Notes under the pieces: generated by a model
What the model was told of the DNA's origin: nothing
What the model saw: only the letters and a program-made list of their open reading frames with translations
The model's database searches: none
Shown here: positions 4,692-59,836 of the stretch, in pieces
Position numbering within the stretch: position 1 is the first letter of the stretch
How the letters are laid out: every line of letters starts with the position of its first letter
Translations under genes and position numbers: made by a program
Source of the DNA: Desulfuromonas sp.
GTDB lineage: Bacteria > Desulfobacterota > Desulfuromonadia > Desulfuromonadales > UBA2294
Length of the DNA stretch: 62,620 nt
Direction: 5' to 3'
NCBI GenBank assembly: GCA_002868925.1
Contig: PKTZ01000109.1
Span: 1 to 62,620, forward strand

Positions 4692-4720
4692 TTGTCAGGG
4701 TCGGTCTATTTTCCTATACT
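4692..4720 (+). promoter_or_regulatory. Sigma-70 type promoter of the downstream sRNA
   Basis: TTGTCA (4692-4697), 17-nt spacer, TATACT (4715-4720). Confidence 0.6.
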
Positions 4721-4727
4721 GACACAA

Positions 4728-23422: not shown

Positions 23423-23663
23423 ACCCACAAATCGTTTCATCTTATCAAGGGCGGTCCAGCATGGATCGCCTTTTTTATTGCCGCCATCCCCACCCCCACC
23501 CGAACCCTTTCGACAAAAAACAGAGAAACAGTAAAAACACACGGATTCACTTGCGAATCGGCAATTATGTGCCATAGTTTTTTACAGTGCTTTTTCCGTT
23601 TTTTCGGTTACAAGCTCCCCTTTGATTGTCATGTCATCCAGGCAAAATCGACAGGAGGAAAAA

Positions 23664-34025: not shown

Positions 34026-34105
34026 TTTTTATCAGGCCACACCCTGATTGAATTCTGTTATCAATCCATGCCATAATAGAACGCTGTTTAATAACGAGGC
34101 GCTCT

Positions 34106-35542: not shown

Positions 35543-35551
35543 AGGAACAAC

Positions 35552-36508
35552 ATGCTGACACGCCGTGAATTCATAAAACGTTGCCGCGACATATCACTGT
35601 TGATGTGCGGGCAGACACTGCTCACCAGGCAGCTGGCGCACGGCTTCCTGCAACTTGCCAAAGCGCCGCCGTCAATCGCCTTTGTCCATGCCCAGAACTG
35701 CATGGGCTGTACAACCTCGATGATGTACGGCAACGACTTCGACTTCCTCGACTTTCTCGGCTCCGTCGGCAACCTCGACATCCATCCCGCCCTCTCTTTC
35801 AACCAGGGGGGGGAATACCTGGCGCGGCTCGATGCCATCTGCAAGGAGGGGAACCACCTGCTGGTGGTCGAAGGGAGCATTCCCTCCGACCCACCGGAAG
35901 CCTGTCTGCTCGGCGACAGGCCGATCTATGACGTTCTTGCCGACTGCGCACAGAAGGCCAAAATGGTTATCTGTTCCGGCTCCTGTGCCAGCCACGGCGG
36001 CATCCCCGCTTCGGGCGGTAACCAGACCGGCGCCCTTTCGGTCGGCGCTTATCTCGAGCAGAAAAAAATCAAGGTCCCGCTGCTGCAGGTCCCGGGCTGC
36101 CCGGTCCACCCCGACCACCTGATGGGGAGTATCGCCTATATCACCGCCACCGGGAAGCTGCCGCCGCTGAAGAAGGAAACGCGCCTGCCGGAGGAATATT
36201 TCGGCGAGCTGCTGCACAACCGCTGCAGCCGCTACCAGCACTTCTCCCAGGACAAGTTCGTCAATAATTACGCCAAGGACAAGAATGACTGTCTGCTCAA
36301 AAAAGGATGCCGTGGCCCGGTAACCGCGAGCGACTGCCCGGTGCGGCGCTGGAACAAGAGGACCAGTGTCTGCGTCGAGAGCAACACTCCCTGTATCGGC
36401 TGCATGAACTCCCACTGGCCGTTCAAAAGCGACCTCTACCTGGAGACGGCGGAGGTCGAAGACCTCCCCTGGTCACAGATGAAGCAAAAGACCAACAGTC
36501 GGCGCTAA
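35552..36508 (+). CDS. [NiFe] hydrogenase small subunit with twin-arginine-like N-terminus
   Basis: 318 aa. MLTRREFIK... N-terminus. Proximal cluster ligands NCMGC, GSCASHGG and PGCPVHPDH. C-terminal Cys/His set for the medial and distal clusters (HNRC, DCLLKKGCRGP, DCP, VCVESNTPCIGC). Confidence 0.9.
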   Translation: MLTRREFIKRCRDISLLMCGQTLLTRQLAHGFLQLAKAPPSIAFVHAQNCMGCTTSMMYGNDFDFLDFLGSVGNLDIHPALSFNQGGEYLARLDAICKEGNHLLVVEGSIPSDPPEACLLGDRPIYDVLADCAQKAKMVICSGSCASHGGIPASGGNQTGALSVGAYLEQKKIKVPLLQVPGCPVHPDHLMGSIAYITATGKLPPLKKETRLPEEYFGELLHNRCSRYQHFSQDKFVNNYAKDKNDCLLKKGCRGPVTASDCPVRRWNKRTSVCVESNTPCIGCMNSHWPFKSDLYLETAEVEDLPWSQMKQKTNSRR

Positions 36509-36514
36509 GTTAAC

Positions 36515-38242
36515 ATGATGAAATTCTGGAAATACCGGACAGCCAAATATTTTTATATGGTGGCAGGCGCTATTCTGCTGCTGATGGTGATTTCCATCCT
36601 GACCGACGCACTGCAATCACGCCAGGTCAAAAAATCGTTTACCACCTACATGAACAACCTGCGCGACATGGTCTTCATGTCGACTTACGATTCCCTGAAA
36701 AAAGGGAATATGCGGGTCTTCAAGAACCACCTCGAGGAGATCGGCACCTTCAACGATGTCGAGGAGTTCTCTCTGATCGACACCAAGGGCTTTGTCCGCT
36801 ATTCCTCCGACCCGTTACTGGTCAAGCAGGCCGATCCCCGCGTCATCGACCTGACCGCACAACAGGAGTTGTCGGCCAACGGCTTTTCGACCTATTATTT
36901 CCCGGTCGAAACCACCAGCTACTGTTCTCGCTGCCACTTCGACTGGGAGATCGGCTCGATCAACTCCTACTACCGGTTGACCCTGAGCCGGCAGGCGCTC
37001 GACGCGGTTCAAAAGAGTACCCTCTACTACCACGCCTTCACCGTTATTGGCTGCGCTGTCCTGATCGCCTTCATCTACCTGCTGTTCATGATCTACGAAC
37101 GGAAGAAGAACGAAGAGCAGATGCTGCTCTCGGCCAGTGTCCGCAACTTCATGGATGCGACCGCCGAACCGTTTCTGATCATCGATGCCAACGGCACCTG
37201 TATCTTCTGCAACCAGGCCGGCCTGAACCAGCTGGGGCACGATACCACCAGCACCCTGCTCGGCAGGGATTTCTACAAAACCATCCAGCACTCCGATGAA
37301 GACGGCAGCCCCTTCCCGGAAGAGAAACGACTCGGCAGAAGCGCCCTGCAGCAAGGGGTTTCAGAAGTCGTCAACGAGGCGCTGCTCTGGCGGGCCGACG
37401 GCGGCAGTTTCGTCGCCGAGTGCCGAGTGCACCCGATCATCAAGAACGGCATCGTCTCCGGGGCAACGATCAACTTCTTCGACGTCACCGAAAAGAAAAA
37501 AGAAGAGCTGCGGACCATGCATATCTCGCATCTCGCCTCCCTCGGCGAACTGGCGGCCGGGGTCGCCCACGAGATCAACAATCCGATCAACGGCGTCATC
37601 AACTACGCCCAGATCTTCAAGAACCGCTTCAAACCGGAAGAAGAAGGTTCACAGATGCTCGATCGGATCATCAAGGAGGGGAACCGGATCGCCAAGATCG
37701 TGTTCAGCCTTCTGCACTACGCCCACCAGGGCGAAGAGAAGATGGGCGCCGTTAACTTCAGCCAGGTCATCAGCGAAACGATGAACCTGTTCCAGACTCA
37801 GCTCAACCGGGATGGGATTCACCTCGAACTCGACGTCGATGAAAAGGTACCGGTCGTTATCGGCCGTTTCCAGGACCTCGAGCAGATGCTGATGAACCTG
37901 ATCAGCAATGCCCGCTACGCTCTCAATAAGAAATTCCCCGAGACCGGAGATCCGGGCAAGCTGCTCTGCATCGGTTTGGAGAACTTCGAACATGATGAGT
38001 GGCCGCACATCCGTCTGACCGTCCTCGACAAGGGGACCGGTATCGAGAAGGAGATGCTGAACAAGGTTTTCAACCCATTCCTCACCACCAAACCGGCCGG
38101 TGACGGCACCGGGCTCGGCCTGCATGTCTGCTTCAGCATCATCAAGCAGCATGACGGAAAAATCGACATCGACAGTGAACCGGGCAACTTCACCCGGGTC
38201 ACTGTCGATTTTCCGATCGCCGACCGCGGTTCAAAACAGTAG
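36515..38242 (+). CDS. Membrane sensor histidine kinase with periplasmic CxxCH (c-heme) loop, cytoplasmic PAS, HisKA and HATPase_c
   Basis: 575 aa. TM1 at about aa 12-32 and TM2 at about aa 175-197. CSRCH sits in the loop between them. PAS (EPFLIIDANGTCIFCNQAG...), H-box VAHEINNPING, and G-boxes DKGTGI and GTGLGL. Confidence 0.85.
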   Translation: MMKFWKYRTAKYFYMVAGAILLLMVISILTDALQSRQVKKSFTTYMNNLRDMVFMSTYDSLKKGNMRVFKNHLEEIGTFNDVEEFSLIDTKGFVRYSSDPLLVKQADPRVIDLTAQQELSANGFSTYYFPVETTSYCSRCHFDWEIGSINSYYRLTLSRQALDAVQKSTLYYHAFTVIGCAVLIAFIYLLFMIYERKKNEEQMLLSASVRNFMDATAEPFLIIDANGTCIFCNQAGLNQLGHDTTSTLLGRDFYKTIQHSDEDGSPFPEEKRLGRSALQQGVSEVVNEALLWRADGGSFVAECRVHPIIKNGIVSGATINFFDVTEKKKEELRTMHISHLASLGELAAGVAHEINNPINGVINYAQIFKNRFKPEEEGSQMLDRIIKEGNRIAKIVFSLLHYAHQGEEKMGAVNFSQVISETMNLFQTQLNRDGIHLELDVDEKVPVVIGRFQDLEQMLMNLISNARYALNKKFPETGDPGKLLCIGLENFEHDEWPHIRLTVLDKGTGIEKEMLNKVFNPFLTTKPAGDGTGLGLHVCFSIIKQHDGKIDIDSEPGNFTRVTVDFPIADRGSKQ

Positions 38243-47898: not shown

Positions 47899-47907
47899 AA
47901 ACAGAGA

Positions 47908-47938
47908 AAGGGGCAGAATTCAATTCTGCCCCTTTTTA
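47908..47938 (+). terminator. Intrinsic terminator of rne
   Basis: GGGGCAGAATT-C-AATTCTGCCCC followed by TTTTT. Confidence 0.85.
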
Positions 47939-48087
47939 GTCTGGATCGTGCCTAAGGACTGTACCTTTCACTTCTCTTTCACCGCATACTAAAAATCCTT
48001 AGATAATATAAGAATGTGCTCTAAGTTGAACTGCCTCGGGAACGAGGCATTGCTCTCGCGCAAGAACCTCATCCAGAAGGTTGCGCC

Positions 48088-48552
48088 TCAGCTATATATT
48101 TTCAATTTCAGGGTTTGTAGCAACTCGCTTGGGAACTCCCATGACCAAACTGAGCTCATCGCGTCCGGCTCACTCCAGGCGGGGTCTGCCTCAAGTTTCT
48201 CCAAACTCCTGCAAAATGTTTTTATCATTTTTGAACCCTCACATTGATGTTGAAGCAAAGGCTCATTCTCTTCAGCAGATGCGACGACAAGATCTATTTC
48301 ATTATTGACGCTCTTAAAAGTCCATTCTACCCATGCGGGTTCAAGTGACCACGCTACAACACCCTCTATACTTCCTGCGAATAAATCCAACAGGACTTTG
48401 ACCAACTCATACAGTGAATTGCAAGGAACGTCCGAAACCTCAAGCTCAATGTCATACTCAGATGAAGACAGTTCTATTGCCAGCCAGCCATGATCTGGAG
48501 TGCCAAATTGAAGAGTTAAATCATCCATTTTCCCCATTGAGATGTTCTTCAT
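48088..48552 (-). CDS. Hypothetical acidic cytoplasmic protein
   Basis: 154 aa with AT-rich codon usage and no signal peptide. No family recognised. Confidence 0.45.
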   Translation of the reverse strand: MKNISMGKMDDLTLQFGTPDHGWLAIELSSSEYDIELEVSDVPCNSLYELVKVLLDLFAGSIEGVVAWSLEPAWVEWTFKSVNNEIDLVVASAEENEPLLQHQCEGSKMIKTFCRSLEKLEADPAWSEPDAMSSVWSWEFPSELLQTLKLKIYS

Positions 48553-48662
48553 TTATTGAGAATCTAACGTCTCTTGTGTTGTCCTATTTTATAACTTTCT
48601 TTATGCCCTAAGTTTTACCAAACCACCGACTAAACATTTCTGCGACCGGATTCTTTCAGTGA

Positions 48663-49433
48663 CTACTTGCCTTCAGGCTGGATATAAGGCTTATACATCA
48701 GCGCAATATAATATGACCTTCCCGGGCTGACGGTTTCGGCATAAACTTCAACATCGAGGGTCGGAAGAATCTCAAACAACCTGTTGATATCACAGTTTTG
48801 AAATGAGGACTGCCAGTTTGACTCGAACGTCTCATCCGAAGCCGAACTTCCCTTTAATTCTTGGTTTCGTTGAAGCGCTATGTGACAGTCTCCATCCCGG
48901 AAAATGAGATCACCCGACGAAACAGCTTCTAAAGTTGACCCAGTACCGGAACCGTGCATTATCTCAGTGAAAGTACCCTTAACTAGAAGCGACTTGCCAA
49001 AACGTTTTTTCCAGTAAGATTCGGTCACTTGCGGAGCTTCTTCTTCCGGATCGGAGATTGTTTCATCTATCATCTCCTGCCAGAACTTTCTAGCTGCTTC
49101 TTCCTGTCGGGCTGCGACCTCATCCTTAATAGAAGGAGATCCGACCGCTTCACTCTTATTTTGCCCCGCCTCCGGCTCACCGGAACTCATATAAACCGTT
49201 CCCTCACCATCTGCCATCCACCGCAAAGCATCGAAAACAGCCCTCGTACGGCCGTCTCCTATCCCGACAAATAGGTTCGTTTTATCGTCAGCGGCGAATC
49301 CCGAGCAAATCCAGTCCGGAGCCTGAACATCGGGAGCATCGGGAAAAACACATGTTTTACTGTCTGCTTCAGCAAAGGCAATTGAGCAAAGCAATAGGTA
49401 GCCACAAAAAAAACAATTCAGAAATTTGAACAT
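48663..49433 (-). CDS. Hypothetical secreted protein (first gene after GEMM-I riboswitch copy 1)
   Basis: Start moved to the ATG at 49433 (MFKFLNCFFCGYLLLCSIAFAEA, a signal peptide), because the upstream part of the track ORF overlaps the terminator hairpin. Confidence 0.6.
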   Translation of the reverse strand: MFKFLNCFFCGYLLLCSIAFAEADSKTCVFPDAPDVQAPDWICSGFAADDKTNLFVGIGDGRTRAVFDALRWMADGEGTVYMSSGEPEAGQNKSEAVGSPSIKDEVAARQEEAARKFWQEMIDETISDPEEEAPQVTESYWKKRFGKSLLVKGTFTEIMHGSGTGSTLEAVSSGDLIFRDGDCHIALQRNQELKGSSASDETFESNWQSSFQNCDINRLFEILPTLDVEVYAETVSPGRSYYIALMYKPYIQPEGK

Positions 49434-49449
49434 TTCAAAACCTTTCGTA

Positions 49450-49483
49450 TGAAAAAAGCCAACCATATAGACATGGATGGCTT
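49450..49483 (-). terminator. Expression-platform terminator of riboswitch copy 1
   Basis: Minus strand AAGCCATCCAT-GTCT-ATATGGTTGGCTT followed by TTTTTTC, about 20 nt after the aptamer. Confidence 0.75.
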
Positions 49484-49502
49484 TGAATTCTGTTTAGCTC
49501 CC

Positions 49503-49579
49503 TCCCCATGCAACCCGGCTGTCACAGTAAGACCATTGGCTTTGCGTCACTGAATTGCTTCAGTTTTGCTCTCTGGAAA
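49503..49579 (-). promoter_or_regulatory. GEMM-I cyclic-dinucleotide riboswitch aptamer, copy 1 (A at the specificity position)
   Basis: Minus strand TTTCCAGAGAGCAAAACTGAAGCAATTCAGTGACGCAAAGCCAATGGTCTTACTGTGACAGCCGGGTTGCATGGGGA. This shows P1 (TTTCCA/TGGGGA), the GCAAA block, a hairpin capped by the GNRA loop GCAA, GACGCAAAGCC, and the ...CAGCCGGGTTGC 3' block, the same order as in the V. cholerae Vc2 aptamer. Confidence 0.85.
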
Positions 49580-50038
49580 ATCAATGTAACACAAATATGC
49601 AAGATGACATATGTTCTTTTTGCCTGATATATTTCCTTAATAGCCACGGGTGATGGGGTTTTTAGGTTTTTACTAAAAGCCCTCCTCCAACTTTTAGGTG
49701 TTCAGTAATAGCCCGTTAAACACTTTCCCTAAAATAGACTGCAATTTGAGAATGGCGAAAGCCTCTCACCTGTCGTGATAAATAAAAAAACTATGTTATC
49801 GGAGGGGTAATCATGCAAGCATAAATCGCAATATCATTGTCAATTCAAGTTTTCGATGTTAATATCCACTCACTAATCAATATTTTTTGTTTTGTTGGTT
49901 GGAGGGGCCGACAAACAAAAGATATAAAGCAATAATGAATACCACTCCAAAGAATAATTGAGGGTGGTTTTTTATTGGCAAACTTCTACATACTCTCGAA
50001 TTAACCGCAACCTGCCATTACTAACTCAGGAGACTCAC

Positions 50039-50584
50039 ATGACCAGAACCGCTACGATTGTAATTTTTTTATTGTTCATTTCAATTTCATCTTTTGCAGA
50101 CAGCCCGCAGCTTCAACAAATGAAAGACATGATTAAGCAGATGGAAAAAAGCGGCAATGTCCCACCGAGTCTTTATAAGATGGTGAAAGACCTTGAAGAA
50201 CTTGAAAAAGAAAATGGGCCTGCTGACTTGAGTAGCCTTAAAGTTGAGGAGGAAGACTGCACCGACGATCTTCTTGCAGGGGTATGGTATGCAAACAATG
50301 GACTGACAAAGCTTGAGCTATTAGACGGTGGGCAGGCAGTCTTAAAAAATGACGATGTGACCGGACAATATGAAACGGATGCTCGATTCAAATGGAGCTC
50401 ATCTTCTGCAGGATTTACTGCAGATTATAGTAAATCAAAAGGTGGATATGTCAGAGTAATTGAAAAAAGAACGGGCAAAGCACCTGTAGGATCGAACGAA
50501 TATCGCTACCCTAAAACAGATACTGTCCGTTGTCGATATATGGGTAATATGCTCGATATTGGATACACAATATACAATCGATAA
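50039..50584 (+). CDS. Hypothetical secreted protein
   Basis: ATG at 50039 with AGGAG upstream. Signal peptide MTRTATIVIFLLFISISSFA. 181 aa. Confidence 0.55.
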   Translation: MTRTATIVIFLLFISISSFADSPQLQQMKDMIKQMEKSGNVPPSLYKMVKDLEELEKENGPADLSSLKVEEEDCTDDLLAGVWYANNGLTKLELLDGGQAVLKNDDVTGQYETDARFKWSSSSAGFTADYSKSKGGYVRVIEKRTGKAPVGSNEYRYPKTDTVRCRYMGNMLDIGYTIYNR

Positions 50585-50593
50585 TGTAAAACA

Positions 50594-50641
50594 TTGCTTC
50601 GGGAGCAAGGGGGCGAGGTTCAAATCCTCTCGTTCCGACCA
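50594..50641 (+). pseudogene. 3' fragment of a class-II-like tRNA (variable arm + T-arm + acceptor + CCA)
   Basis: TTGCT-TCGGG-AGCAA stem-loop, then GGGGG-CGAGG-TTCAAAT-CCTCT-CGTTCCG-A-CCA. No matching 5' acceptor strand, D-arm or anticodon arm lies upstream. A terminator follows immediately. Confidence 0.5.
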
Positions 50642-50650
50642 ATTATAAAA

Positions 50651-50680
50651 AGAGCGATCCTAATCAGGGTCGCTCTTTTC
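50651..50680 (+). terminator. Intrinsic terminator after the tRNA fragment
   Basis: AGAGCGATCC-TAATCA-GGGTCGCTCT followed by TTTT. Confidence 0.75.
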
Positions 50681-50771
50681 TTATATATCTACTATTGTTA
50701 ATCAGAGGTTGAATTGCCCCCTGTTTTGATGTTTCCTATAAATCCTGCAATTCAAAAGAGAATAAAGCCCC

Positions 50772-50987
50772 TCACCGAACAAGCCTTCCCTCCCGTCGTG
50801 CTTTTTTAATTTCCTCGGATGTGGCTAGCCGGCAGGAATACCCCTGACACAAACATGACTGACATGGATCACATCTAAATGAGATCATGCGACCAGTACA
50901 CTCACCACTGCAATATTGTTTAAATAATGAATCCTCTCCGTCGTCAACACCTTCTTTTGGTGCTGCACAAATCACAAACTCCCCCAT
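50772..50987 (-). CDS. Small Cys-rich hypothetical protein (71 aa)
   Basis: ORF with 10 Cys (CSGEC, CDPCQSCLCQGYSC). The coding status is uncertain. Confidence 0.3.
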   Translation of the reverse strand: MGEFVICAAPKEGVDDGEDSLFKQYCSGECTGRMISFRCDPCQSCLCQGYSCRLATSEEIKKARREGRLVR

Positions 50988-51058
50988 GATCCCTCCTTAT
51001 AAAATTAATCTTTCAATTTAAAATAGTGAAACGTCACTCGTCAGTCGTGATATTTAAG

Positions 51059-51379
51059 CTACATTTTTGAAAGTATAATAACTTCAAATATGATCTCCTC
51101 ATCTGGAATATTTCGCCCTTGATCAAAGTGACGATAAACTCGGATTTGGAATAAATCTCCTACCTCAACAGGGAGAAATTCCTCCGAGACACGAACCTGC
51201 TTATAAAAATTACCAGATTCAACGAGATCAACACTTTGCCCTGCTGTTTGTTGATGAACTTTTACAACTCTAGCTACTACATCGAGTTCGTTATAGCCGG
51301 GAATGTAAGTGCGACAGCCAACAGTGATGACTATTATAAAAGTAAGAACTAGACCACATAAATAAGAGCGCCAATTCAT
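51059..51379 (-). CDS. Hypothetical lipoprotein (106 aa)
   Basis: Internal ATG at 51379 with GGAGG upstream. Lipobox ITVGC. Confidence 0.5.
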   Translation of the reverse strand: MNWRSYLCGLVLTFIIVITVGCRTYIPGYNELDVVARVVKVHQQTAGQSVDLVESGNFYKQVRVSEEFLPVEVGDLFQIRVYRHFDQGRNIPDEEIIFEVIILSKM

Positions 51380-51473
51380 AAGTACATTCCTCCATTTATT
51401 CTGCAATTTGGGAGTGGATAACACCTCTCACCAATCGTGATTTATAAAAGCACCAACACTGTTTTCAACTTGT

Positions 51474-52331
51474 TCATTCTAACTTCTTAACTCCCAACAC
51501 ATTTGGGACAGGCCAAGCAGCTCCATTATGATCATGTTCGGTAAATCCCGTTTCATAGCTACCGAACTTCTCATATGTTTGACCGTCGATATTAACGAAC
51601 ATTTGCGCTTCCGGACCACCTTCCAGATGTTGAGCGGCAACTAAGTTGAGGTCAAGTGAAAGGAGTTTGTTGTTAAAGTCGTGCATGCTCATCGGCGCCC
51701 GGCAAAAAATAAACAGGATGCGCCCCATCGAATCCTCGCCGAGGGCGACCTCACTCCAGGCTTTTTCCTGCTGACTCCAACGATTTTGACCAGGCTTCTT
51801 GATCAGTCTCAAATTCTGAACAACAGAACTGTAATCTTGCAATATCGAATCAACGCTCACTCCCGGGACATCTAGATCAAACATACAAAAAGGTGGCAAA
51901 CCTTCTCGCCGTGGATCGAACGCGGCGACAGACTTATATGAATTGACATGACCACTAAGAACCTGGTCGCGCACCTGCATGAAACCGAGATGCGTACGAT
52001 GGTCCTGGCCAAACATCCCAGCATTAATTACAGCTGCTAACTTCCGATTCCAACTCCACTCACGCGCCGTCATTCCGCCCGAATCTGAAGCGAGCATGGG
52101 GGTGGCAATATCCAGACCCCACTTTTGCGGATCAACCCGCAACACTGTGATATCCGTGTCTGAAACAGGGACGGGCGAATTGACTTCAAACCGTGCGACC
52201 TGCATGCCGGGAGCAAGAATTTCCCAAGCAGTCTCAGCAATCGATACACAAGGCAAAAAAAGCTGTAGGCACACTCCGAATAATAGAAACAGCCAACTAA
52301 TAAATCTCATAAAAACCAGATTACTCACCAC
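51474..52331 (-). CDS. Phosphodiester glycosidase family protein (DUF2233-like)
   Basis: 285 aa with a signal peptide. Blocks AVINAGMFGQD..THLGF and LEGGPEAQM are typical of this family (recalled from memory). Confidence 0.55.
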   Translation of the reverse strand: MVSNLVFMRFISWLFLLFGVCLQLFLPCVSIAETAWEILAPGMQVARFEVNSPVPVSDTDITVLRVDPQKWGLDIATPMLASDSGGMTAREWSWNRKLAAVINAGMFGQDHRTHLGFMQVRDQVLSGHVNSYKSVAAFDPRREGLPPFCMFDLDVPGVSVDSILQDYSSVVQNLRLIKKPGQNRWSQQEKAWSEVALGEDSMGRILFIFCRAPMSMHDFNNKLLSLDLNLVAAQHLEGGPEAQMFVNIDGQTYEKFGSYETGFTEHDHNGAAWPVPNVLGVKKLE

Positions 52332-52337
52332 AAAATT

Positions 52338-52958
52338 CTAGAGAAGAAAAGGAACTGTCAATGCAACAACAAAAACGACAACAGGTAACGCATACAACAT
52401 AATCTTGCCAGGTCTACTTTGCGCTACCCTCTCAGGCCAGCTTGGCTGCATGAAACTGAAGACCACCCCTTTTCCCTCATACCATTCAAGACTCCACATC
52501 ATTCCAGCGCAAACATATATAACTGAAGACGCAAAGATGTTAGGCAGCCAGGTCATGGGATAGTAGCCGTCTTTCAAAAGCATATACAGATCGTATGACC
52601 AACTTACCGTGAACATCCAGACGCAGGCAGCGATATAGGTTTTAGTCCAGGACGTCTTGCCACGTAACTTCAGGAAGAGAGTGCCGATTGCCCAAGGTGC
52701 AGTGAGATATGCCAACACGCACATCATGGTTGAATCGTAATAGTCCCAAGTTGGATCTCCAGTGTAAGGTGCAATCACAGCCATGCCGATTGTCCCGACT
52801 ACGAACGTAACGACCTTCCAAGGCTGGAACAGTAGTTGCCAATAGTCTCTTTTGAAAAGTTCAAGAGACCTTCTTTTTTTATACAGGAGAACCCCAGCGA
52901 GTACGCAGGCCAGAAGGTAAAAGAGGATATAAGCTTTAAAAGGGAGTGTAAGAGTCAT
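52338..52958 (-). CDS. Hypothetical membrane protein
   Basis: 206 aa, about 6 TM helices, W/Y-rich. Its stop lies 6 nt upstream of the next gene's start. Confidence 0.5.
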   Translation of the reverse strand: MTLTLPFKAYILFYLLACVLAGVLLYKKRRSLELFKRDYWQLLFQPWKVVTFVVGTIGMAVIAPYTGDPTWDYYDSTMMCVLAYLTAPWAIGTLFLKLRGKTSWTKTYIAACVWMFTVSWSYDLYMLLKDGYYPMTWLPNIFASSVIYVCAGMMWSLEWYEGKGVVFSFMQPSWPERVAQSRPGKIMLYALPVVVFVVALTVPFLL

Positions 52959-53087
52959 ATAAGGGAATCTAGCACTGAGAATGCGTTGAGCAAATACCAG
53001 GGTTCATTTGACAATCTAACTTCTGGGAAAGTTGAATACACTTTCTAAAAAAAGTAATTTCCCAACACTCTCTTGTGCTGACAAAAC

Positions 53088-54122
53088 TCATTGCGTAACT
53101 ACCTCTCCTTTATTGTGCCAATTACCTGGAAGTTTCAACCCGAAAAAATCCAGCTTTTCAGTATTAAAATAAAGAATAGGTGACTCTGTAAAGCGGATTG
53201 GCATATCAGCCGGAGATTCATTTGAAAGAAGTATTTTTGAAGCCATCTCAGCAGATATACGTCCAAGTTCTTCATAATCAAAGCCAACTGAAAAAACAGC
53301 ACCATTAACTACAGAACTCTTATTGGAACTAAAAATAGGGACCTTATATTCTGTTGAAAGTTTGCTGATGGTAGAAAACGCTTGTTGGTCTACTGCATCC
53401 ATCGGCACGTAAAGCGCATCAACACGACCCGCAAGCCGAGAAAAAGCTTGTTCAACGTCATCTTGTTTAAACACGGGAACAGTTTTAAGCATCAACCTTC
53501 TGGCTCGGCATTCTCTCAAAATGCGATTAGAAATCTCCTTAGCGTTGTCTGTATTGGGATTAAAAATCATACCGACATGCCTTACCTTTGGGATCAACTC
53601 TATCAGGTAGTCAAGTTGAGCTCCAATCGGGCTAAGATCACTGGTACCCGTTATATTCCGTCCTAATCTTTTCCAGTTGGGGCCCGCAAGGTTTTTTCCA
53701 ACTTCGTTCCAGTCACTAAGTATTCCTGCAGAAACCGGATCAGTTGCCCCCAACACAATAGGAACCGACTTTGTTTCATTCGCTACAGATTGAGCTTGTT
53801 CAGCACCAACAACAAAAACCAGATCATAATCGTTATTGGCGAAAGATTGGGCCATTCGGTATGTTTTCATTGGGTTTTCTTCGGCAACCTGAAGGATGAA
53901 GGTTGCTTTCCCATTGAGCAGTTCAGAAAGTCTCAACTGGAATCGCGATATCATCTTGTCAAAAATGGGATGGTGGCTGCCTTGGAATACGCCTATCTTG
54001 AATTCTTTAGGAGTCGTAGATTCTTGTGCGCTTGCTTGCTGGGAATAATGAAAAACGCCTAAAACAATCAGCAAAACAAAAAAACATAATGGTTTTCTTT
54101 TCCAACAAAAACTCATTTCCAA
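53088..54122 (-). CDS. ABC-transporter-type periplasmic substrate-binding protein (ABC_sub_bind-like), orphan
   Basis: 344 aa with a signal peptide and a two-lobe SBP pattern (KIGVFQGSHHPIFD..., VFVVGAEQA, ALYVPMD). No permease or ATPase gene is adjacent. Confidence 0.55.
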   Translation of the reverse strand: MEMSFCWKRKPLCFFVLLIVLGVFHYSQQASAQESTTPKEFKIGVFQGSHHPIFDKMISRFQLRLSELLNGKATFILQVAEENPMKTYRMAQSFANNDYDLVFVVGAEQAQSVANETKSVPIVLGATDPVSAGILSDWNEVGKNLAGPNWKRLGRNITGTSDLSPIGAQLDYLIELIPKVRHVGMIFNPNTDNAKEISNRILRECRARRLMLKTVPVFKQDDVEQAFSRLAGRVDALYVPMDAVDQQAFSTISKLSTEYKVPIFSSNKSSVVNGAVFSVGFDYEELGRISAEMASKILLSNESPADMPIRFTESPILYFNTEKLDFFGLKLPGNWHNKGEVVTQ

Positions 54123-54359
54123 CTCCCATTTAGAATAGCCTTAATATTAAGCAATTAAACAACGACTCCCGTCGAGTCGGGAGGAAAGAAAAAGCGCCTT
54201 TTATGATTAACACTAGCCGCGGAGCGCAGAATACTTCAAACAATAAAGAAACTATTTTACTTGGCTACAGATCCCCGCAGATCCGGAATCCATTTCATTT
54301 GCAATACACCCAAATTGCAAAGAACAATCAAACAAATGACCGTTTCTTAAGTATGTAGT

Positions 54360-55091
54360 TTAAATGGCTTCGAAAGAATAATTACCATTTAGGACGACGA
54401 CATTCGGGGGCCTTTTGCTTTCCGAAAAAAAATCATAACCTTTCTTCAGGTTCTGCCAAAATGAAAACCATTTTGACTCCTCATGACGAGCCATATTCTC
54501 TTCCGTCATTCTGAAGGGAAAGATATGAACCCTGAAGAAAGGTTGTCCGTTTCGTAAAGCTGCATCGATAATCGTATAGATTTCTTCAATCTGCTCATCC
54601 GTCATCGCGTAACATCCGATTGAAACACAATCCCCGTGGACCATGATAGCGCTGCCGGTTCTTCCCTGGCTCCGATCGTATACATTTGGATAGCCGATAT
54701 TGAAAGATAAGTAAAAGGTACTGTAAGGATTAAGTTGGCGAGGTGTAACAAAATAAAACCCCTCAGGACTCTGATTGTCGCCTTCCCTGAGTTTTGGCCC
54801 GAGATCTCCAGAGTAATAACAAATCGGGTAAGTTTTGAATAACTTAAAAATATCGTTTTTTTCGACCCAGAGTTCCAACTCTGATGATTCTTTGAAAATC
54901 CGAATATAAACGGGCATCCCGAGAAGCAACCCTTGATTTTCTAATTCGGGAAAAATTCTTTGAGAAGCTTCTGCGATCGCTTTTTTTGATCTTGTGCTTG
55001 AAGGTATCTCCACAGCAAAAGAGCTCGCACTTGCCAAAATCCCTATTAGAAAAAATAAAATAATAATCTGTCTCAAAAAACTTCCCCTCAT
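54360..55091 (-). CDS. L,D-transpeptidase-fold protein (YkuD/YafK-like)
   Basis: 243 aa with a signal peptide. Catalytic block GSAIMVHGDCVSIGCYAM (H-G ... S-x-G-C). Confidence 0.75.
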   Translation of the reverse strand: MRGSFLRQIIILFFLIGILASASSFAVEIPSSTRSKKAIAEASQRIFPELENQGLLLGMPVYIRIFKESSELELWVEKNDIFKLFKTYPICYYSGDLGPKLREGDNQSPEGFYFVTPRQLNPYSTFYLSFNIGYPNVYDRSQGRTGSAIMVHGDCVSIGCYAMTDEQIEEIYTIIDAALRNGQPFFRVHIFPFRMTEENMARHEESKWFSFWQNLKKGYDFFSESKRPPNVVVLNGNYSFEAI

Positions 55092-55293
55092 GGATTCAAT
55101 AACAGCGCAGAGTTGCCGATATTAATTGCCTCATTTTGGATAAAAACACCTAATGTACAAAGTGATTTGAATATCCCCTGCTTATTTTCCAAGAACAGTA
55201 AATCCCTACACACCAAAATATTTACCCTCCCGGTACTTCCTGGCAGTTGTTCAATTGAAAAACAACTAAAGGCTCATGATATACATTCGTTTT

Positions 55294-55650
55294 TTATTCA
55301 ACCACAGCCTCAGAATGTTTTTTCAAAACGTCGGCACAGACCTTTTCCCACCGTGGCTCAATCACTCCAGGGCTTTCAATCAACGTGTCCATGAAAAGCT
55401 TCATCTCTGATTTAATCGACTCCATATCAGTGTAATTGTTTGCCGCCGAAAGCATTTCTATACCTTTTGTCTTGTACTCCACGGAAACCTCAGGCTCATC
55501 CTCTTCGAACATACTGGCACCGACAAGGTACAAACCCCCACAGCGTATCAACTGATCAGCGATTGGCACTTCCTCTGTTGAAGGATTTCCCAAAACCGGA
55601 GAGCCTGCCAGTAGCAGAACCATAATTGAAGTCAAAATTTTATATTTCAC
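55294..55650 (-). CDS. Hypothetical secreted protein (118 aa)
   Basis: Signal peptide MKYKILTSIMVLLLAGSPVLG. No family recognised. Confidence 0.5.
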   Translation of the reverse strand: MKYKILTSIMVLLLAGSPVLGNPSTEEVPIADQLIRCGGLYLVGASMFEEDEPEVSVEYKTKGIEMLSAANNYTDMESIKSEMKLFMDTLIESPGVIEPRWEKVCADVLKKHSEAVVE

Positions 55651-55685
55651 AGCTCACACCTCGGCCACGTAGATCAAATACTTCA

Positions 55686-56150
55686 TCACAATAGCCCCAA
55701 CGACTCGAATGTCGTGCCGTCTTCGCACGGATCAAGCGCTGTTAATGCGTTATCGTAGAATCGTTTAAACACATCAAGAGGAATTTCATTTTTGAAGGTG
55801 GTTAGGCTGACGGTATTATCCTCGTCACAACGGGAGATCACTGCGACGATATCGCCATCCGAGTTTAACAGCTCCAAATTCATCGTGTCCCGATCAATAT
55901 CTGATGCAAGCTGATAGCTCCAATTTTCTGTTTCAGGCGAAACCCTGCAGATCGCGACCAGACATTCTTTCTCAGACAGAAGGCGTTTCTGACAACGTAC
56001 CGTTTCCCCCGGCTTGAACTTCCAGTGTTCGCCCTCCGGGACAACGGTCTTCTGCGGAATCAAATACTGGTCTTCTCTAACATGATGTGATTGAACAGGT
56101 CGCCAGCTATTTGGCCCTTCGTACATAAGAAAGATATGTATTTCAGCCAT
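55686..56150 (-). CDS. Hypothetical cytoplasmic protein (154 aa)
   Basis: No signal peptide. Overlaps the upstream gene by 8 nt, which suggests translational coupling. Confidence 0.5.
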   Translation of the reverse strand: MAEIHIFLMYEGPNSWRPVQSHHVREDQYLIPQKTVVPEGEHWKFKPGETVRCQKRLLSEKECLVAICRVSPETENWSYQLASDIDRDTMNLELLNSDGDIVAVISRCDEDNTVSLTTFKNEIPLDVFKRFYDNALTALDPCEDGTTFESLGLL

Positions 56151-56388
56151 AAAGGTCTCTCTCCTTCAAAAACTCAACAACTTCCGCAATATCGTATTCC
56201 TCGAGAATAATAGCCAAACACTCTTTGCGGTCTTCATCCTCCTCTTTGAGAAACAGCTCTGTCAACCGTACAACTAACTCAGGGTGTTTCTGTAGAACCC
56301 TGTCAATCGCAGCATGTGTTTCACCCTGGTCACCTTCGGCAAAAATCTCTTCAAAATAATTCAAGACATTTTTGAATTGCTGTTCCAA
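56143..56388 (-). CDS. Hypothetical small acidic helical protein (81 aa)
   Basis: Acidic, all-helical sequence within a run of tightly spaced same-strand genes. Confidence 0.45.
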   Translation of the reverse strand: MEQQFKNVLNYFEEIFAEGDQGETHAAIDRVLQKHPELVVRLTELFLKEEDEDRKECLAIILEEYDIAEVVEFLKERDLYG

Positions 56389-56397
56389 TAGCCCCTC

Positions 56398-56964
56398 CTA
56401 CTCAAGCAACACCGGCTCACCGACCTGAGCCAGCTCGCCTGTTGCCGCATCGAGAGAATACGTTATGGAATAGGTTCTTATTTCGCCTGAAGCTACGTTG
56501 TCCACCGACAGCTCCTTATCCGTATTGAACAGCAGCTTGTCGCCCTGCCAGCGCATCTCCCAGAGACTTCCCGGATAAGGGTCGTAACCTGCCATGTAAC
56601 GGGGCTTCCTTCCCTGGCGGAGCTCCGCAAGGGTTATGATGGCAAGATACGGGTGCCCTTCTCCGCCATTTTCTTCGAGAGCAGCGTACATCTTGGATGG
56701 TGAGACCAGCATCGTGTTGATCTCTGAGCCATCCCCCATGCCGGCAACCTCTTGACGACGCCCCCCTTTTAAAAGATAGACCTCGTTTTCGTAGTAGTTC
56801 CCATATTCAACATAAGTGTACGCCCAACAAAATGAAGTCTCTTCTTCAAGACCAACCTCGACACAGTTCAGTTCATCGAGGGATATATGATTGTTTTGCC
56901 GTGCGCATGCACCGAGCAAGAGGAGTGCGGCGGCAAGATACGCAGCTGTGAGTATCTTCTTCAT
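56398..56964 (-). CDS. Hypothetical lipoprotein (188 aa)
   Basis: Lipobox LLLGAC. Overlaps the upstream OmpA-like gene by 4 nt. Confidence 0.55.
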   Translation of the reverse strand: MKKILTAAYLAAALLLLGACARQNNHISLDELNCVEVGLEEETSFCWAYTYVEYGNYYENEVYLLKGGRRQEVAGMGDGSEINTMLVSPSKMYAALEENGGEGHPYLAIITLAELRQGRKPRYMAGYDPYPGSLWEMRWQGDKLLFNTDKELSVDNVASGEIRTYSITYSLDAATGELAQVGEPVLLE

Positions 56965-57737
56965 TTCTTTACAACCTTAAATTCTACCCGCCGGTTTTTC
57001 GCCCAGGCCTCTTCAGTATGTCCGGCAGCAGCAGGAAATTCTTCACCGTAACTGATTGTCTTCAGCCTTTTATTCGGTAGACCTAATGCCAGCAGATAAT
57101 TTTTGACCATGTCCGCCATGCGTTCACCAAGCGAAAGATTATATTCTGCTGTCCCCCGCTCATCAGTATGGCCGGAAAGCTCTACCACCCAATCATTGTA
57201 CAGTTTTAAAATCTTGGCGTTTTCCTGGAGCTTTTCCCGTTCCTTGACACTCAGAGCAGCACTGTTGTAATCGAAATAGACGGTCTGCAAATCAGAAGGT
57301 TCGAGCAGCAAATAAGTCACATCATCGTCAAAACTAAATGACCCTGCCGAGGGGTAATAGACAGCTTTGTTTTTATTAAATATCAAGAACGCCGGGGAGG
57401 TAATCCCCTCCCTAAGAAGAGGGATCGGTCCCGGGCCGACCATTCCATCAGGATTGTTTTTTTGGCCATAGACTATTGTGATAACATCCCCTTCAGACAG
57501 GCCACTCGCAGTCCTTGCAATCGACATGACCTGAGCCTGCATTTCCACAAGCAAACCATCTTCAACATCTTCGCGGCTTGTTGATAGGACCTTAACCACA
57601 AGCTTTTCGGGAGAATCCTGCTGGGATTCTGCATAAGCGTATGGGGGCAACTCAGCAGTCGCTTGCGTTGCAAAAATGCTTACAATGAGAATGACAGACC
57701 AACATCCAATATTAGCAATGTGCTTTAAGCGGCTCAT
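56961..57737 (-). CDS. OmpA-family (Pal-like) peptidoglycan-binding protein
   Basis: Start at the ATG at 57737 (ATGA overlap with the upstream stop). Signal peptide. C-terminal OmpA_C (VELSGHTDERGTAEYNLSLGERMADMV...NRRVEF). Confidence 0.8.
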   Translation of the reverse strand: MSRLKHIANIGCWSVILIVSIFATQATAELPPYAYAESQQDSPEKLVVKVLSTSREDVEDGLLVEMQAQVMSIARTASGLSEGDVITIVYGQKNNPDGMVGPGPIPLLREGITSPAFLIFNKNKAVYYPSAGSFSFDDDVTYLLLEPSDLQTVYFDYNSAALSVKEREKLQENAKILKLYNDWVVELSGHTDERGTAEYNLSLGERMADMVKNYLLALGLPNKRLKTISYGEEFPAAAGHTEEAWAKNRRVEFKVVKK

Positions 57738-58048
57738 GGGAAATTCCTTGTATCGGCGATGATCATGAAAGCAGCCAGACATACTGTCATACCGACAAAC
57801 ACGACGTAAGAAATCACTTTTTCACTTTTGCTGTAATGATTCTGAAGAATCAGAGCAAGTATCCCCTGCCCTGCCCAGAGTGGTGACATCACCAATGCGG
57901 TCCCTACAAAAAAAGCGATGGCATAGCCAACGCTAAAAGGAAGAAGCAGAATTGCGCCACCGACTGCCACGACAACAAAAGCCATAGCTGTGGTATAAAG
58001 CCCCAGTCGGAATCGTCCCCAATCAATCAATTTAAAGGCACCCTTCAA
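57734..58048 (-). CDS. Hypothetical small membrane protein (104 aa, about 3 TM)
   Basis: Hydrophobic ORF that overlaps both neighbouring genes. Confidence 0.45.
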   Translation of the reverse strand: MKGAFKLIDWGRFRLGLYTTAMAFVVVAVGGAILLLPFSVGYAIAFFVGTALVMSPLWAGQGILALILQNHYSKSEKVISYVVFVGMTVCLAAFMIIADTRNFP

Positions 58049-58607
58049 TCAGGCTGACGGTGGAAGGTTTGCCGATACGAAAGCTCGAGATACGATAATC
58101 ATCAAATAAGATCTGACCATCGAGAGCTTCGATTCTTTTTTGTGCGTGTGTTTCAAACAGCAGCCGATTGCCGCCGTCGACCTTCACCGATACATAGTGA
58201 GCCCCTCTGCCGTAGGGATGTTCCCGAATGCGAACCTTCGGTTTGAATTTTGACTGGATCTCATCTTCTTTGGAACCGACGGACAGACCGGACAGAGTTT
58301 TTATCTCTTGATCACGCACATCAATGCGGACAATCTGCCCGTCCTGCACCATATATCCCATAGAAGAATAGTCGCCATTGGGATAAACGTAATAACAGCC
58401 ATCGTGCTCGACATTGTTATGACGCAGCAGGGGCATACCGATTAACTCAGATGCCTGCTGTGGTGTCATGCCGATTTTGACCGGGCCGAAGCCGTTGGCG
58501 TGGACATACAAAGGTGATGCTTCTCCCGCTATTGCAGTGCACCACATCATTAAAACCATCAAGAAAGCTAATAAATAGTTCGTTATCATTTCACAACTCA
58601 CATCCAA
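58032..58607 (-). CDS. Hypothetical secreted protein (191 aa)
   Basis: N-terminal hydrophobic signal (LLAFLMVLMMWCTAIAGEA). The start could be 58607 or 58589. Confidence 0.5.
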   Translation of the reverse strand: MDVSCEMITNYLLAFLMVLMMWCTAIAGEASPLYVHANGFGPVKIGMTPQQASELIGMPLLRHNNVEHDGCYYVYPNGDYSSMGYMVQDGQIVRIDVRDQEIKTLSGLSVGSKEDEIQSKFKPKVRIREHPYGRGAHYVSVKVDGGNRLLFETHAQKRIEALDGQILFDDYRISSFRIGKPSTVSLIEGCL

Positions 58608-58683
58608 AACCTGAGATATGTCTATTTTGACTATTTAATTACAAGAATTTATTGCATGCCTTACGGTCATCAAAAAGTCAATT

Positions 58684-59352
58684 TCAAGGGGTGCCAGAAA
58701 TTCCAACTATCTCCTGTTTTTTAAGATCTGCTCCCAAAATTGCCAGGTTAAGACCATCTCCATCCTTGAACAAAATTCGCAATTCATCTTCTTTTGCAAA
58801 TGAATCTATAATTTCAATAACATCAGCTGCGACCAATTCCATTCTGCTTCCATCAACCGTCATAACATACAGATTTTGACCTGAACCCATTTGGCCAGCT
58901 TCTCTTTCTTCTTCAACAATGGCCGCTACATATTGAGGGTCGTCAACCTGTGCTTGTTCTGATTTTCCGACATACCTGGCCGTGTTCCCGAGTTGGGGGA
59001 TCAAGCGATATGAGATGAGTTCTTTCTCCCCATCGGCAAACGGATTGATAAAGCTCTCTTTTGTATGGTTATAAAAAACAATTCCTTCTGAAGATTTACC
59101 CTGCTTTCTGGTTCTGACATAGACGATTGAAATGTCACCATCGACCTTACTTGAATGAAATGTGACACTTGTCGGTATGGCCGCACTTTTCTTTTTCACC
59201 ACACGCTTTACCGGAACCGGTTTTTTTATCTGATCTTTTTCATTGTCTGCATAAAATGCAATGGCCAATAAAAAACAGATGGCTATAGTCAAGGCAAAGA
59301 ACAATAGAGAGTTCGCGCGATTGATGAATCTGAAAAACTTATTTATTCTCAT
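58684..59352 (-). CDS. Hypothetical membrane-anchored protein (first gene after GEMM-I riboswitch copy 2)
   Basis: Start moved to the ATG at 59352 (AGGAG upstream; MRINKFFRFINRANSLLFFALTIAICFLLAIAFYA). The upstream part of the track ORF is the riboswitch terminator. Confidence 0.6.
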   Translation of the reverse strand: MRINKFFRFINRANSLLFFALTIAICFLLAIAFYADNEKDQIKKPVPVKRVVKKKSAAIPTSVTFHSSKVDGDISIVYVRTRKQGKSSEGIVFYNHTKESFINPFADGEKELISYRLIPQLGNTARYVGKSEQAQVDDPQYVAAIVEEEREAGQMGSGQNLYVMTVDGSRMELVAADVIEIIDSFAKEDELRILFKDGDGLNLAILGADLKKQEIVGISGTP

Positions 59353-59398
59353 GACCACTCCTGAATTAAATCGACACCATTTATTGCACTCACCATCC

Positions 59399-59435
59399 AA
59401 TACAAAAGCCACCCACGTCTCCACATGGATGGCTT
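59399..59435 (-). terminator. Expression-platform terminator of riboswitch copy 2
   Basis: Minus strand AAGCCATCCA-TGTGGAGACG-TGGGTGGCTT followed by TTGTATT. Confidence 0.65.
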
Positions 59436-59456
59436 GAAATCCTGCTCAATTATCCC

Positions 59457-59533
59457 CCTCCATGCAACCCGGCTATCTCAGTAAGACCCGTGGCTTTGCG
59501 TCACTGAATCACTTCAGCTTTGCTCTTTGGAAG
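59457..59533 (-). promoter_or_regulatory. GEMM-I cyclic-dinucleotide riboswitch aptamer, copy 2 (A at the specificity position)
   Basis: Minus strand CTTCCAAAGAGCAAAGCTGAAGTGATTCAGTGACGCAAAGCCACGGGTCTTACTGAGATAGCCGGGTTGCATGGAGG. Same 77-nt architecture as copy 1, with a GNRA loop GTGA and compensatory changes in P1 (CTTCCA/TGGAGG versus TTTCCA/TGGGGA). Confidence 0.85.
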
Positions 59534-59836
59534 ATCAATTTACCACAGGAATACTGAAAGACGAATATATTTATATTTCCCGCCCTCCCGGCATCTGGCG
59601 CGTTCCGGCCGCGAGTACCCGAATGCGCACCACCTCATCGGCACCCTGCTGGAACCCGGCATAGGCAATCGGCGACATTTCGGCGGCAACCGGATGCGCG
59701 GCCGAGAATATGAGGGCGAGAACTGCTGTCAGACAAACCGCGAGTCTACCGCATCGATGTATGAATCTTCTCTCCACTCGTCAATTCCTCAAAACACTGA
59801 AAATGAAGTCATCCCAAGCCTTATCGACCGGCCCGG

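Follow-up and report, generated by a model that had tools for sequence, protein, structure and literature searches.

The 62,620-nt contig PKTZ01000109.1 from Desulfuromonas sp., hereafter referred to as the window (the whole stretch of DNA that was analysed), carries on its minus strand two GEMM-I riboswitch aptamers, copy 1 and copy 2, of which copy 2 (59457-59533) heads eight closely packed genes, g1 to g8. Our analysis points to a cyclic-dinucleotide OFF switch that would gate g1 and the packed genes behind it, and we lean, without great firmness, towards this mechanism as a whole. The existence of the riboswitch is not news in itself, since any Rfam-based annotation would flag it.

The whole window was scanned with Rfam models at curated thresholds. 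Four matches were obtained: a 6S RNA, one tRNA and two c-di-GMP-I (cyclic diguanylate; GEMM-I) aptamers. In the covariance-model check proposed for the aptamer in the original prediction, copy 2 matched RF01051 at 59460-59534 (minus strand) at 57.7 bits, the gathering score being 35 (E 1e-8), and aligned full-length to model positions 1-87 with no non-standard pairs. Copy 1 matched the same model at 49506-49580 (minus strand) with 48.3 bits. All three-helix junction features of GEMM-I, including the GNRA-capped P2 and P3, were seen in the copy 2 alignment, with the core segments GCAAA and GACGCAAAGCC, the intercalating A and the ligand-pairing C all intact and the unpaired AA after GACGC kept. 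In order of transcription, the aptamer consists of the P1 5' strand (59533-59528), P2 (59518-59503, loop 59512-59509), P3 (59495-59466), the equivalent of the ligand-pairing C92 of Vibrio cholerae Vc2 (59464) and the P1 3' strand (59462-59457). Model position 11 corresponds to G20 of Vc2, which is unpaired and followed by the paired GC; it is an A in both copies (59524 in copy 2), and the P2 loop is GUGA in copy 2 versus GCAA in copy 1; both traits, already read from the DNA in the original prediction, are evident in the Rfam alignment. A comparison of four related leaders gave pairing of 100% for P2 and 95% for P3, with double changes. The c-di-GMP-I-UAU variant (RF03168) was rejected as an assignment: copy 2 scored 57.2 bits, below the threshold of 65.9, and has A and C at the G20 and C92 positions, where the variant is defined by U. 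The leader is almost certainly a GEMM-I riboswitch, and its RF01051 score together with the A at position 20 suggests a new member of the known GEMM-Ib-like class. No aptamers besides copies 1 and 2 were found within the low-GC island that holds both. The lower part of copy 1 P3 contains two non-standard pairs (AU opposite CG in the Rfam alignment), and copy 1 scores 9 bits below copy 2; judging by its sequence, copy 1 may bind more weakly or be degenerating.

An A at position 20 switches recognition from c-di-GMP to cGAMP, the 3',3'-linked cyclic GMP-AMP (PMC5888326, PMC6140456). Copy 2 bears the G20-to-A change that defines GEMM-Ib, the cGAMP-sensing Geobacter subclass, its own selectivity being a prediction from sequence. 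Among 43 extracted aptamer cores, those closest to copy 2 are the Desulfuromonadales-type L114 (89%) and L125 (81%). The preferred ligand is thus probably 3',3'-cGAMP, possibly with a cross-response to c-di-GMP.

The intrinsic terminator announced by the original prediction was recovered in a terminator scan as AAGCCATCCATGT-GGAG-ACGTGGGTGGCTT followed by TTGTATT, at 59435-59399 (minus strand). It has 13 pairs, 6 of them G-C, and consists of a 5' arm (59435-59423), the GGAG loop (59422-59419), a 3' arm (59418-59406) and a U-rich tail extending to 59399. The helix is kept in copy 1 and in two homologous leaders, L143 and L145, with 94% of cells paired and two pairs changed on both sides. Control very probably acts through this terminator, on transcription. 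Its 5' arm begins 22 nt after P1, and terminator and aptamer have no nucleotides in common. An overlapping-terminator platform, which is typical of, though not strictly defining for, characterised GEMM-Ib ON switches, is therefore absent from copy 2. The overlapping type is present in the Desulfuromonadales leaders L013 and L022, and L114 combines a separate terminator with a complementarity similar to the one described next.

Transcripts of growing length were folded for both copies by free-energy minimization. In the lowest-energy fold of transcripts ending at the terminator 5' arm, the strand GCAUGGAGG (59465-59457), which takes in the pocket C together with the 3' strand of P1, is paired with CC-AUCCAUGU (59432-59423); an equivalent pairing appears in copy 1. 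This strand (59457-59465, minus strand) is hereafter referred to as the candidate antiterminator strand. At the length that includes the 5' arm, the P1 state and the antiterminator state were calculated at -30.9 versus -31.2 kcal/mol for copy 2 and at -20.9 versus -23.5 kcal/mol for copy 1, which makes the two states nearly isoenergetic. The antiterminator duplex itself amounts to -12.4 kcal/mol in copy 2 and -10.8 kcal/mol in copy 1, and it beats 99.5% and 98.9%, respectively, of duplexes with random 14-mers from the window (p 0.005 and 0.011). It covers the loop-proximal half of the 5' arm, where hairpin nucleation must begin. A third paralogue, known from a contig loose end (GCAUGGGGGGG), retains the pairing. 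The strand order of copy 2, P-A-T-H, is that of an OFF design, as in Cd1 (PMC9262584).

The mechanism proposed from these folds is as follows. Without ligand, GCAUGGAGG would pair with the loop-proximal half of the 5' arm, the terminator hairpin would come too late to nucleate, and RNA polymerase would read through. With ligand present, the C at 59464 would pair with the ligand guanine and P1 would close, the 5' arm would be freed, the 13-bp terminator would fold, and transcription would end at about 59400. Since ligand would lock P1 and the pocket C and thereby free the terminator arm, the leader would be an OFF switch, and the predicted folds tilt towards this polarity of ligand-induced termination.

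P1 can form between CUUCCA (59533-59528) and UGGAGG (59462-59457) and would include one G-U pair. In copy 1 the strands are UUUCCA and UGGGGA, which amounts to one double change (C-G to U-A), in the outermost pair. The compensatory change to which the original prediction pointed in favour of a functional helix is therefore real, but it comes from two sequences, and the pair concerned possibly lies upstream of the transcription start. P1 falls outside the RF01051 model, and its G-runs permit alternative pairing registers. Immediately upstream, a TGnTA(A/C)ATT motif is common to copy 2, copy 1 (49591-49583), L143 and L145, with similarity fading upstream of it. In copy 2 this motif (TGgTAAATT, 59537-59545, minus strand) is a candidate extended -10 element or a conserved 5' leader motif, and just 3 nt separate its 3' end from the start of P1. 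A 68-aa open reading frame (ORF) with a signal-peptide-like N-terminus, annotated as a gene in a Joint Genome Institute (JGI) contig, lies in the GC-rich flank at 59571-59777 (minus strand). About 35 nt lie between its end and the aptamer downstream; if it is real, read-out transcription from it could enter the leader.

Several observations weigh against the proposed mechanism. The advantage of the antiterminator duplex over shuffled versions of the candidate antiterminator strand is modest (p 0.03 for copy 2 and 0.08 for copy 1, beating 97% and 92% of shuffles), because a G-rich strand opposes a C-rich one. The full-length fold, calculated with no ligand term, holds aptamer and terminator together at -46.7 kcal/mol; antitermination would then have to depend on kinetics entirely, and a constitutive terminator is conceivable. 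The homologous leaders L143 and L145, which have G at position 20, lack this antiterminator pairing. All GEMM-Ib-controlled genes measured in G. sulfurreducens fall upon deletion of the cGAMP synthase, i.e. are under ON switches (PMC6456294). If the conserved TGnTAAATT served as a -10 element, the transcription start, 6-8 nt downstream, would be placed inside the proposed P1, leaving it 3-5 pairs and removing the one with the compensatory change. Either the motif is part of the RNA and the promoter lies farther upstream, in the AT-rich stretch, or the natural P1 may be very short. With respect to the ligand, some natural A20 aptamers bind cGAMP and c-di-GMP alike (PMC6140456), and no GGDEF motif, as a Hypr (GacA-type) cGAMP synthase would carry, was found in the ORFs of the 62,620-nt window. 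Sorting of about 30 aptamers into ON and OFF types by a crude terminator finder was also tried, and was discarded as a calibrated test because its outcome was too heterogeneous.

Other explanations of the leader were weighed against this one. The leader could be an ordinary Geobacter-type ON switch, in which ligand prevents termination and induces envelope genes as it does for pgcA, pilM and GSU0181-0183. We consider this unlikely but serious, given that every characterised GEMM-Ib switch is ON and that the regulon includes uncharacterised lipoprotein transpeptidases (PMC6456294); here, too, a YkuD-type transpeptidase gene follows g8 with no terminator in between. Inference of polarity from sequence alone is, moreover, unreliable, L013-type leaders having U-runs after two alternative hairpins. 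An ON switch is opposed by the architecture of copy 2: no structure was found in which the ligand-bound aptamer sequesters either terminator arm, the terminator lies 22 nt past P1 and shares no nucleotides with it, and the sole strong alternative partner of the 5' arm is the very strand that ligand binding would lock away. The aptamer could also respond to c-di-GMP, or to both dinucleotides equally, rather than act as a selective cGAMP sensor. Several natural A20 aptamers are bispecific, adenine protonation lets c-di-GMP bind, and P1 stability alters selectivity (PMC6140456); aptamers with A at 20 occur in many phyla among the matches listed, and sister leaders in the same community and in L143 have G20. 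Against this stand the Desulfuromonadales type of the nearest aptamers and the binding of cGAMP by 12 of the 17 GEMM-I representatives of G. sulfurreducens (PMC8835794), and we regard a c-di-GMP or bispecific sensor as possible rather than probable.

The reach of the switch may also be shorter than proposed, with the leader governing g1 only, or g1 strongly and the rest weakly, and g2-g8 keeping a promoter of their own in the 94-nt gap between g1 and g2. That gap is the widest in the cluster, and in the related loci described below (L135, L131-133 and L134) the module begins at g2, without g1 or a GEMM aptamer (E<=0.1). No promoter-like site was scored in the gap, however, promoter-like matches being at chance level overall; regions upstream of g2 are not conserved between loci, and no terminator follows g1. 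Such a restricted reach seems doubtful to us. Finally, copy 2 could be a decaying relic, a non-switching aptamer in front of a constitutive attenuator. The full-length minimum-free-energy fold does contain the terminator irrespective of ligand, and copy 1 has its two non-standard P3 pairs and lower score. Copy 2, by contrast, stands 22 bits over the threshold with all pocket nucleotides intact, the leader is invariant in three assemblies, and the leader family is multi-copy and maintained, which makes decay very improbable. The ligand-induced OFF switch remains the reading that we prefer.

Comparison with known systems places copy 2 nearest to the Geobacter GEMM-Ib riboswitches (Gs1761 upstream of pgcA and Gm0970 upstream of pilM). 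They are alike in the GEMM-I fold, the A in place of G20 (A14 of Gs1761 is the G20 position of Vc2), the C that pairs with the ligand guanine, the short P3 and the GNRA-capped P2, and likewise in their Desulfuromonadales-type hosts, in the use of an intrinsic terminator for control and in having extracytoplasmic or envelope proteins as targets. Unlike in copy 2, the terminator of the pilM ON switch shares strands with the 3' half of the aptamer (PMC9262584), and ligand turns expression on (PMC9262584, PMC6456294); in copy 2 the terminator hairpin stands apart, its 5' arm is able to pair with the 3' strand of P1, and the opposite polarity is predicted. The genes downstream of copy 2 are without parallel in the Geobacter regulon as described, with the L,D-transpeptidase theme as a possible exception. 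The cGAMP regulon of G. sulfurreducens includes the uncharacterised lipoprotein transpeptidases GSU0181-0183 (PMC6456294), and with a YkuD gene present here, control of the envelope by GEMM-Ib has a partial precedent. Cd1, the c-di-GMP-I OFF switch of Clostridioides difficile, resembles copy 2 in the aptamer fold and in the order of P1 5' strand, P1 3' strand, switching strand and terminator strand; in Cd1, too, aptamer and terminator can coexist and the antiterminator competes with P1 (PMC9262584). It differs from copy 2, whose polarity is a prediction, in having G at position 20, sensing c-di-GMP, controlling flagellar genes in a Firmicute and possessing a longer expression platform. Vc2, the numbering reference (G20, A47, C92), shares with copy 2 the RF01051 model and the pocket positions, and differs in having G20, a longer P3 with a GAAA tetraloop and receptor, and selectivity for c-di-GMP.

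All eight ORFs behind copy 2 are present on the minus strand where the original prediction had placed them. Gene starts were picked from ribosome-binding sites and homologue alignments. The genes g2 and g3 overlap by 17 nt, g3 and g4 by 4, g4 and g5 by 4, and g6 and g7 by 8; gaps of 9 nt and 35 nt separate g5 from g6 and g7 from g8, respectively. The spacing of at most 76 nt claimed earlier therefore holds at all junctions but that of g1 and g2, where homologue-backed starts leave 94 nt. The genes share one strand, and the eight-gene operon is an argument from packing. The earlier descriptions of the eight products were supported by sequence and by Pfam and NCBIfam searches.

The first gene, g1 (58684-59352, ATG after CAGGAG), codes for a 222-aa protein with an N-terminal membrane anchor. 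It matched no Pfam or NCBIfam family, and in a search of 5.8 billion clusters its relatives came only from the same bioreactor metagenomes. The g2 product (58032-58589; 185 aa) is a secreted protein with a signal-peptide-like N-terminus, a start backed by three homologues and a weak BamE-like stretch: it scored 23.7 bits against Pfam BamE / SmpA_OmlA (PF04355; cut-off 23.2) over only 33 residues of the 71-position model, and a PDB profile search returned BamE chains at an insignificant E of 0.4. The g3 product (57734-58048; 104 aa) is a small membrane protein that reads as having about three hydrophobic segments; its N-terminal extension from a TTG start is conserved at the protein level in L135 and L131-133.

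The gene g4 (56961-57737) codes for a 258-aa secreted protein in which an orphan N-terminal domain of about 145 aa precedes a Pal-type OmpA_C domain (PF00691, 70 bits). The C-terminal 110 residues are 50-57% identical to Pal proteins, and all 2718 database matches are confined to the C-terminal 43-62% of the protein; among them the N-terminal ~145 residues found no homologues. Assignment of g4 as Pal itself (TIGR02802 equivalog) was rejected, the score of 118.2 bits being below the cut-off of 125.35, the signal peptide with its ATA-E site being followed by no lipobox, and the N-terminal domain being extra. The g5 product (56398-56964; 188 aa) is a lipoprotein with an LLGAC lipobox. Structure prediction, which the original prediction had recommended, was informative for g5 only: the AlphaFold2 model (predicted local distance difference test score, pLDDT, 78) contains propeller-like beta-sheet blades, whereas the single-sequence model of g2 was too poor to use (pLDDT 41). 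Foldseek matched the g5 model best to propeller domains, namely those of S9 peptidases and of TolB (E 9e-4 to 2e-2, template modelling score 0.4-0.55), and the modelled protein resembles a few propeller blades like those of TolB or S9 peptidases. A PDB sequence search with g5 gave insignificant matches only. The g5 family is small: an indexed search gave six clusters, 1.84 billion proteins contained 233 representatives at E<=1e-3, and 185,579 species genomes yielded two distant matches. The GEGHPY motif of g5 is invariant.

The adjacency of g4 and g5, whose products are both exported, the Pal-like C-terminus of g4 and the TolB-like blades of the g5 model recall the Tol-Pal system. Unlike Pal, g4 has no lipobox, carries the orphan 145-residue domain and scores below the Pal cut-off; g5, at 188 residues, falls far short of a full TolB propeller; there is no tolQRA nearby, and relatives of the module lack g4.

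Of the three remaining products, those of g6 (56143-56388, TTG start after GGAGG; 81 aa) and g7 (55686-56150; 154 aa) are acidic proteins with no signal peptide. The former is 77-83% identical to its counterparts in L131-135, and the latter shows 76% identity to a truncated ORF at the end of L135. The g8 product (55294-55650, GTG start after GAGG; 118 aa) has a signal-peptide-like N-terminus and no homologues in the fetched loci. None of the three matched a Pfam or NCBIfam family.

The eight genes appear from their packing to be a minimum for the regulated unit. A gene for a YkuD-type L,D-transpeptidase with a signal peptide (54360-55091, minus strand; PF03734, 36.8 bits) lies on the same strand as g8 after a 202-nt gap, in which the scan found no terminator, and is possibly co-transcribed. 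Beyond it, terminator-like sites occur at 54183-54160 (weak) and at 50648-50679, a bidirectional hairpin. The latter is a perfect 14-bp hairpin flanked by an A-run and a T-run, between the convergent ORFs 49958-50584 (plus strand) and 50772-50987 (minus strand), and by its sequence it is likely the 3' end of any long minus-strand transcript from copy 2. No RNA run was among the sequencing runs matching the locus.

Contigs carrying g5 relatives, which represent three other lineages, revealed a conserved core of g2-g3-g5-g6. This core is found at 74-79% protein identity in L135 (one Logan contig), at 62-83% in L131-133 (a second contig set from the same bioreactor) and, without g3, at 58-77% in L134 (a metagenome-assembled genome, MAG, labelled Pseudomonadales); g7 is present only in L135. 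Both g1 and g4 are absent from all of L131-L135. No g4 stands between g3 and g5, and in L135 and L131-133 g3 overlaps g5 directly, just as g3 and g4, and g4 and g5, overlap in the window. No GEMM aptamer was found in L131-L135 at the gathering score or at E<=0.1, and a riboswitch ancestral to the module was rejected on this account. Since the relatives lack the riboswitch, g1 and g4, these appear to have been added to an older module in this lineage, and the regulated unit, as read from the sequences, would be composite: a rare envelope module plus an acquired anchored protein, Pal-domain gene and riboswitch. In the relatives the module starts at g2 and must have its own promoter there, and the 94-nt g1-g2 gap of the window could hold such a module promoter.

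Three further observations concern these loci. L130, a 1.6-kb contig at 1.6x coverage, contains g1-g2, but unrelated sequence begins about 35 nt upstream of the start of g1 and takes the place of terminator and aptamer (region 1-160), and a stretch inside g1 is rearranged; as a possible strain variant or chimeric assembly, it was given zero weight as a locus lacking the riboswitch. Upstream of the core in L131 (4875-6050) and L132 (4196-5371) lies a gene for a 391-aa protein with an N-terminal stretch 34% identical to g6. A 124-aa protein encoded after the g6 homologue in L131/L132 has faint similarity (E 0.002) to the product of the second gene behind copy 1 (48088-48552).

The two leaders of the window are related. 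Copy 2 and copy 1 are identical at 66 of 75 positions in the aptamer (88%) and at 103 of 128 (80%) when the comparison runs from the -10-like motif through the terminator 5' arm, with identity dropping to about 30% on both sides of this 128-nt stretch. High similarity over about 110 nt, as originally described, is thus borne out; "near-identical" was a generous wording for copies that are clearly similar. The copy 1 terminator (49483-49452) has one internal mismatch. The genes behind the two copies are unrelated, as had been stated: their products, like all products of the island, have no mutual similarity, by which a duplication carrying genes along was rejected. The further claim that the cassette was duplicated or recombined within the island found no specific support. 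The 61-nt aptamer core of copy 2 is as similar to L114, from an unrelated isolate genome, as to copy 1 (89% in both cases); core similarity therefore reflects functional constraint, and only the flanking motif, linker and terminator arm argue for specific common descent. Homologous leaders also occur outside the window, in L143 (Geobacteraceae MAG; 3957-4090, plus strand) and L145 (1921-1790, minus strand). They have G at position 20 and precede a different gene, and they share with copy 2 the GCAUGG after the pocket C, the GCCAUCC...GGGUGGCUU terminator and the TGnTAAATT motif. The L143 leader precedes a gene for a 238-aa product (ORF 4121-4867, from TTG) that ends in a hydrophobic, membrane-anchor-like segment. 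L145, labelled Gammaproteobacteria, is about 92% identical to the Geobacteraceae contig and may be mis-binned.

Other contigs from the bioreactor runs (X1-X4) contain partial leader matches (59404-59527) at a depth of 21-28 versus 16-23. In one of them, the linker and terminator match those of copy 2 over 41 nt with 2 mismatches, closer than the terminator of copy 1; others have the P2 region in common with copy 2 and G at position 20. These matches indicate that the leader belongs to a multi-copy family with A20 and G20 members in the community and, given the similar depths, probably in this genome. G. sulfurreducens has 17 GEMM-I copies (PMC6456294). The exact aptamer pattern had no match in the genome collection or in the JGI metagenomes, the window's own metagenome seemingly lying outside the latter; one match to a looser pattern (L151) was dismissed as chance, not being an aptamer.

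Contigs from three assemblies, all belonging to one bioreactor study, match the window at 99.9% identity, and the leader shows no differences among these independent assemblies. The host is an uncultured bacterium of that bioreactor. The nearest species-level genome, located via the RNase E/G gene, is the Desulfuromonadales MAG L004, with 65% protein identity and synteny from 41 to 47.9 kb. Synteny ends after the RNase E/G gene, where a low-GC stretch starts (about 48.0 to 59.6 kb; 41-47% GC versus 55-63% elsewhere). Both aptamers are inside this stretch, copy 2 at its very edge. No integrase and no tRNA were found at its edges (~48000-59580). Besides the YkuD transpeptidase, its genes include those for an ABC substrate-binding protein (PF04392), an NAGPA phosphodiester glycosidase and orphan exported proteins. 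Just past the final gene behind copy 1, and likewise past the RNase E/G gene that converges on it, the minus strand has a strong 13-bp terminator hairpin (47907-47935). Elsewhere in the window, the 6S RNA is full-length (4737-4915, plus strand, 93 bits) and the tRNA is tRNA-Arg (anticodon TCG; 10322-10398, minus strand). A 3057-aa ORF at 23622-32795 (plus strand) combines a GH94 catalytic domain with two supersandwich domains of GH94 type and a glucoamylase-like one. Cyclic beta-1,2-glucan synthases have this architecture, which adds a further function nearby that concerns the envelope or periplasm. It is followed at 32799-38242 (plus strand) by a small alarmone synthetase domain of RelA/SpoT type that is fused to TPR repeats, by the large and the small subunit of an NiFe hydrogenase and by a histidine kinase with a PAS domain.

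What makes the locus valuable is that it yields an OFF prediction open to test and connects a rare envelope module with a cyclic dinucleotide. The riboswitch ties this functionally uncharacterised module to surface or envelope remodelling under cyclic-dinucleotide control. The locus also suggests how a regulon may grow, since a module that existed before would have received a riboswitch leader, an anchored protein and a gene with a Pal domain. The cGAMP riboswitches measured so far all activate, and an OFF switch, if confirmed, would provide a negative arm in the cGAMP regulon of metal-reducing bacteria. Tentatively, copy 2 might be the first negative-acting cGAMP-type member of GEMM-Ib. In this lineage cGAMP would then shut down a rare envelope module that includes a Pal-domain protein and a propeller-like lipoprotein, and would, by analogy with Geobacter, turn on cytochromes and pili. 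If this were true, one second messenger would swap envelope states in both directions, by way of sister leaders with opposite polarities.

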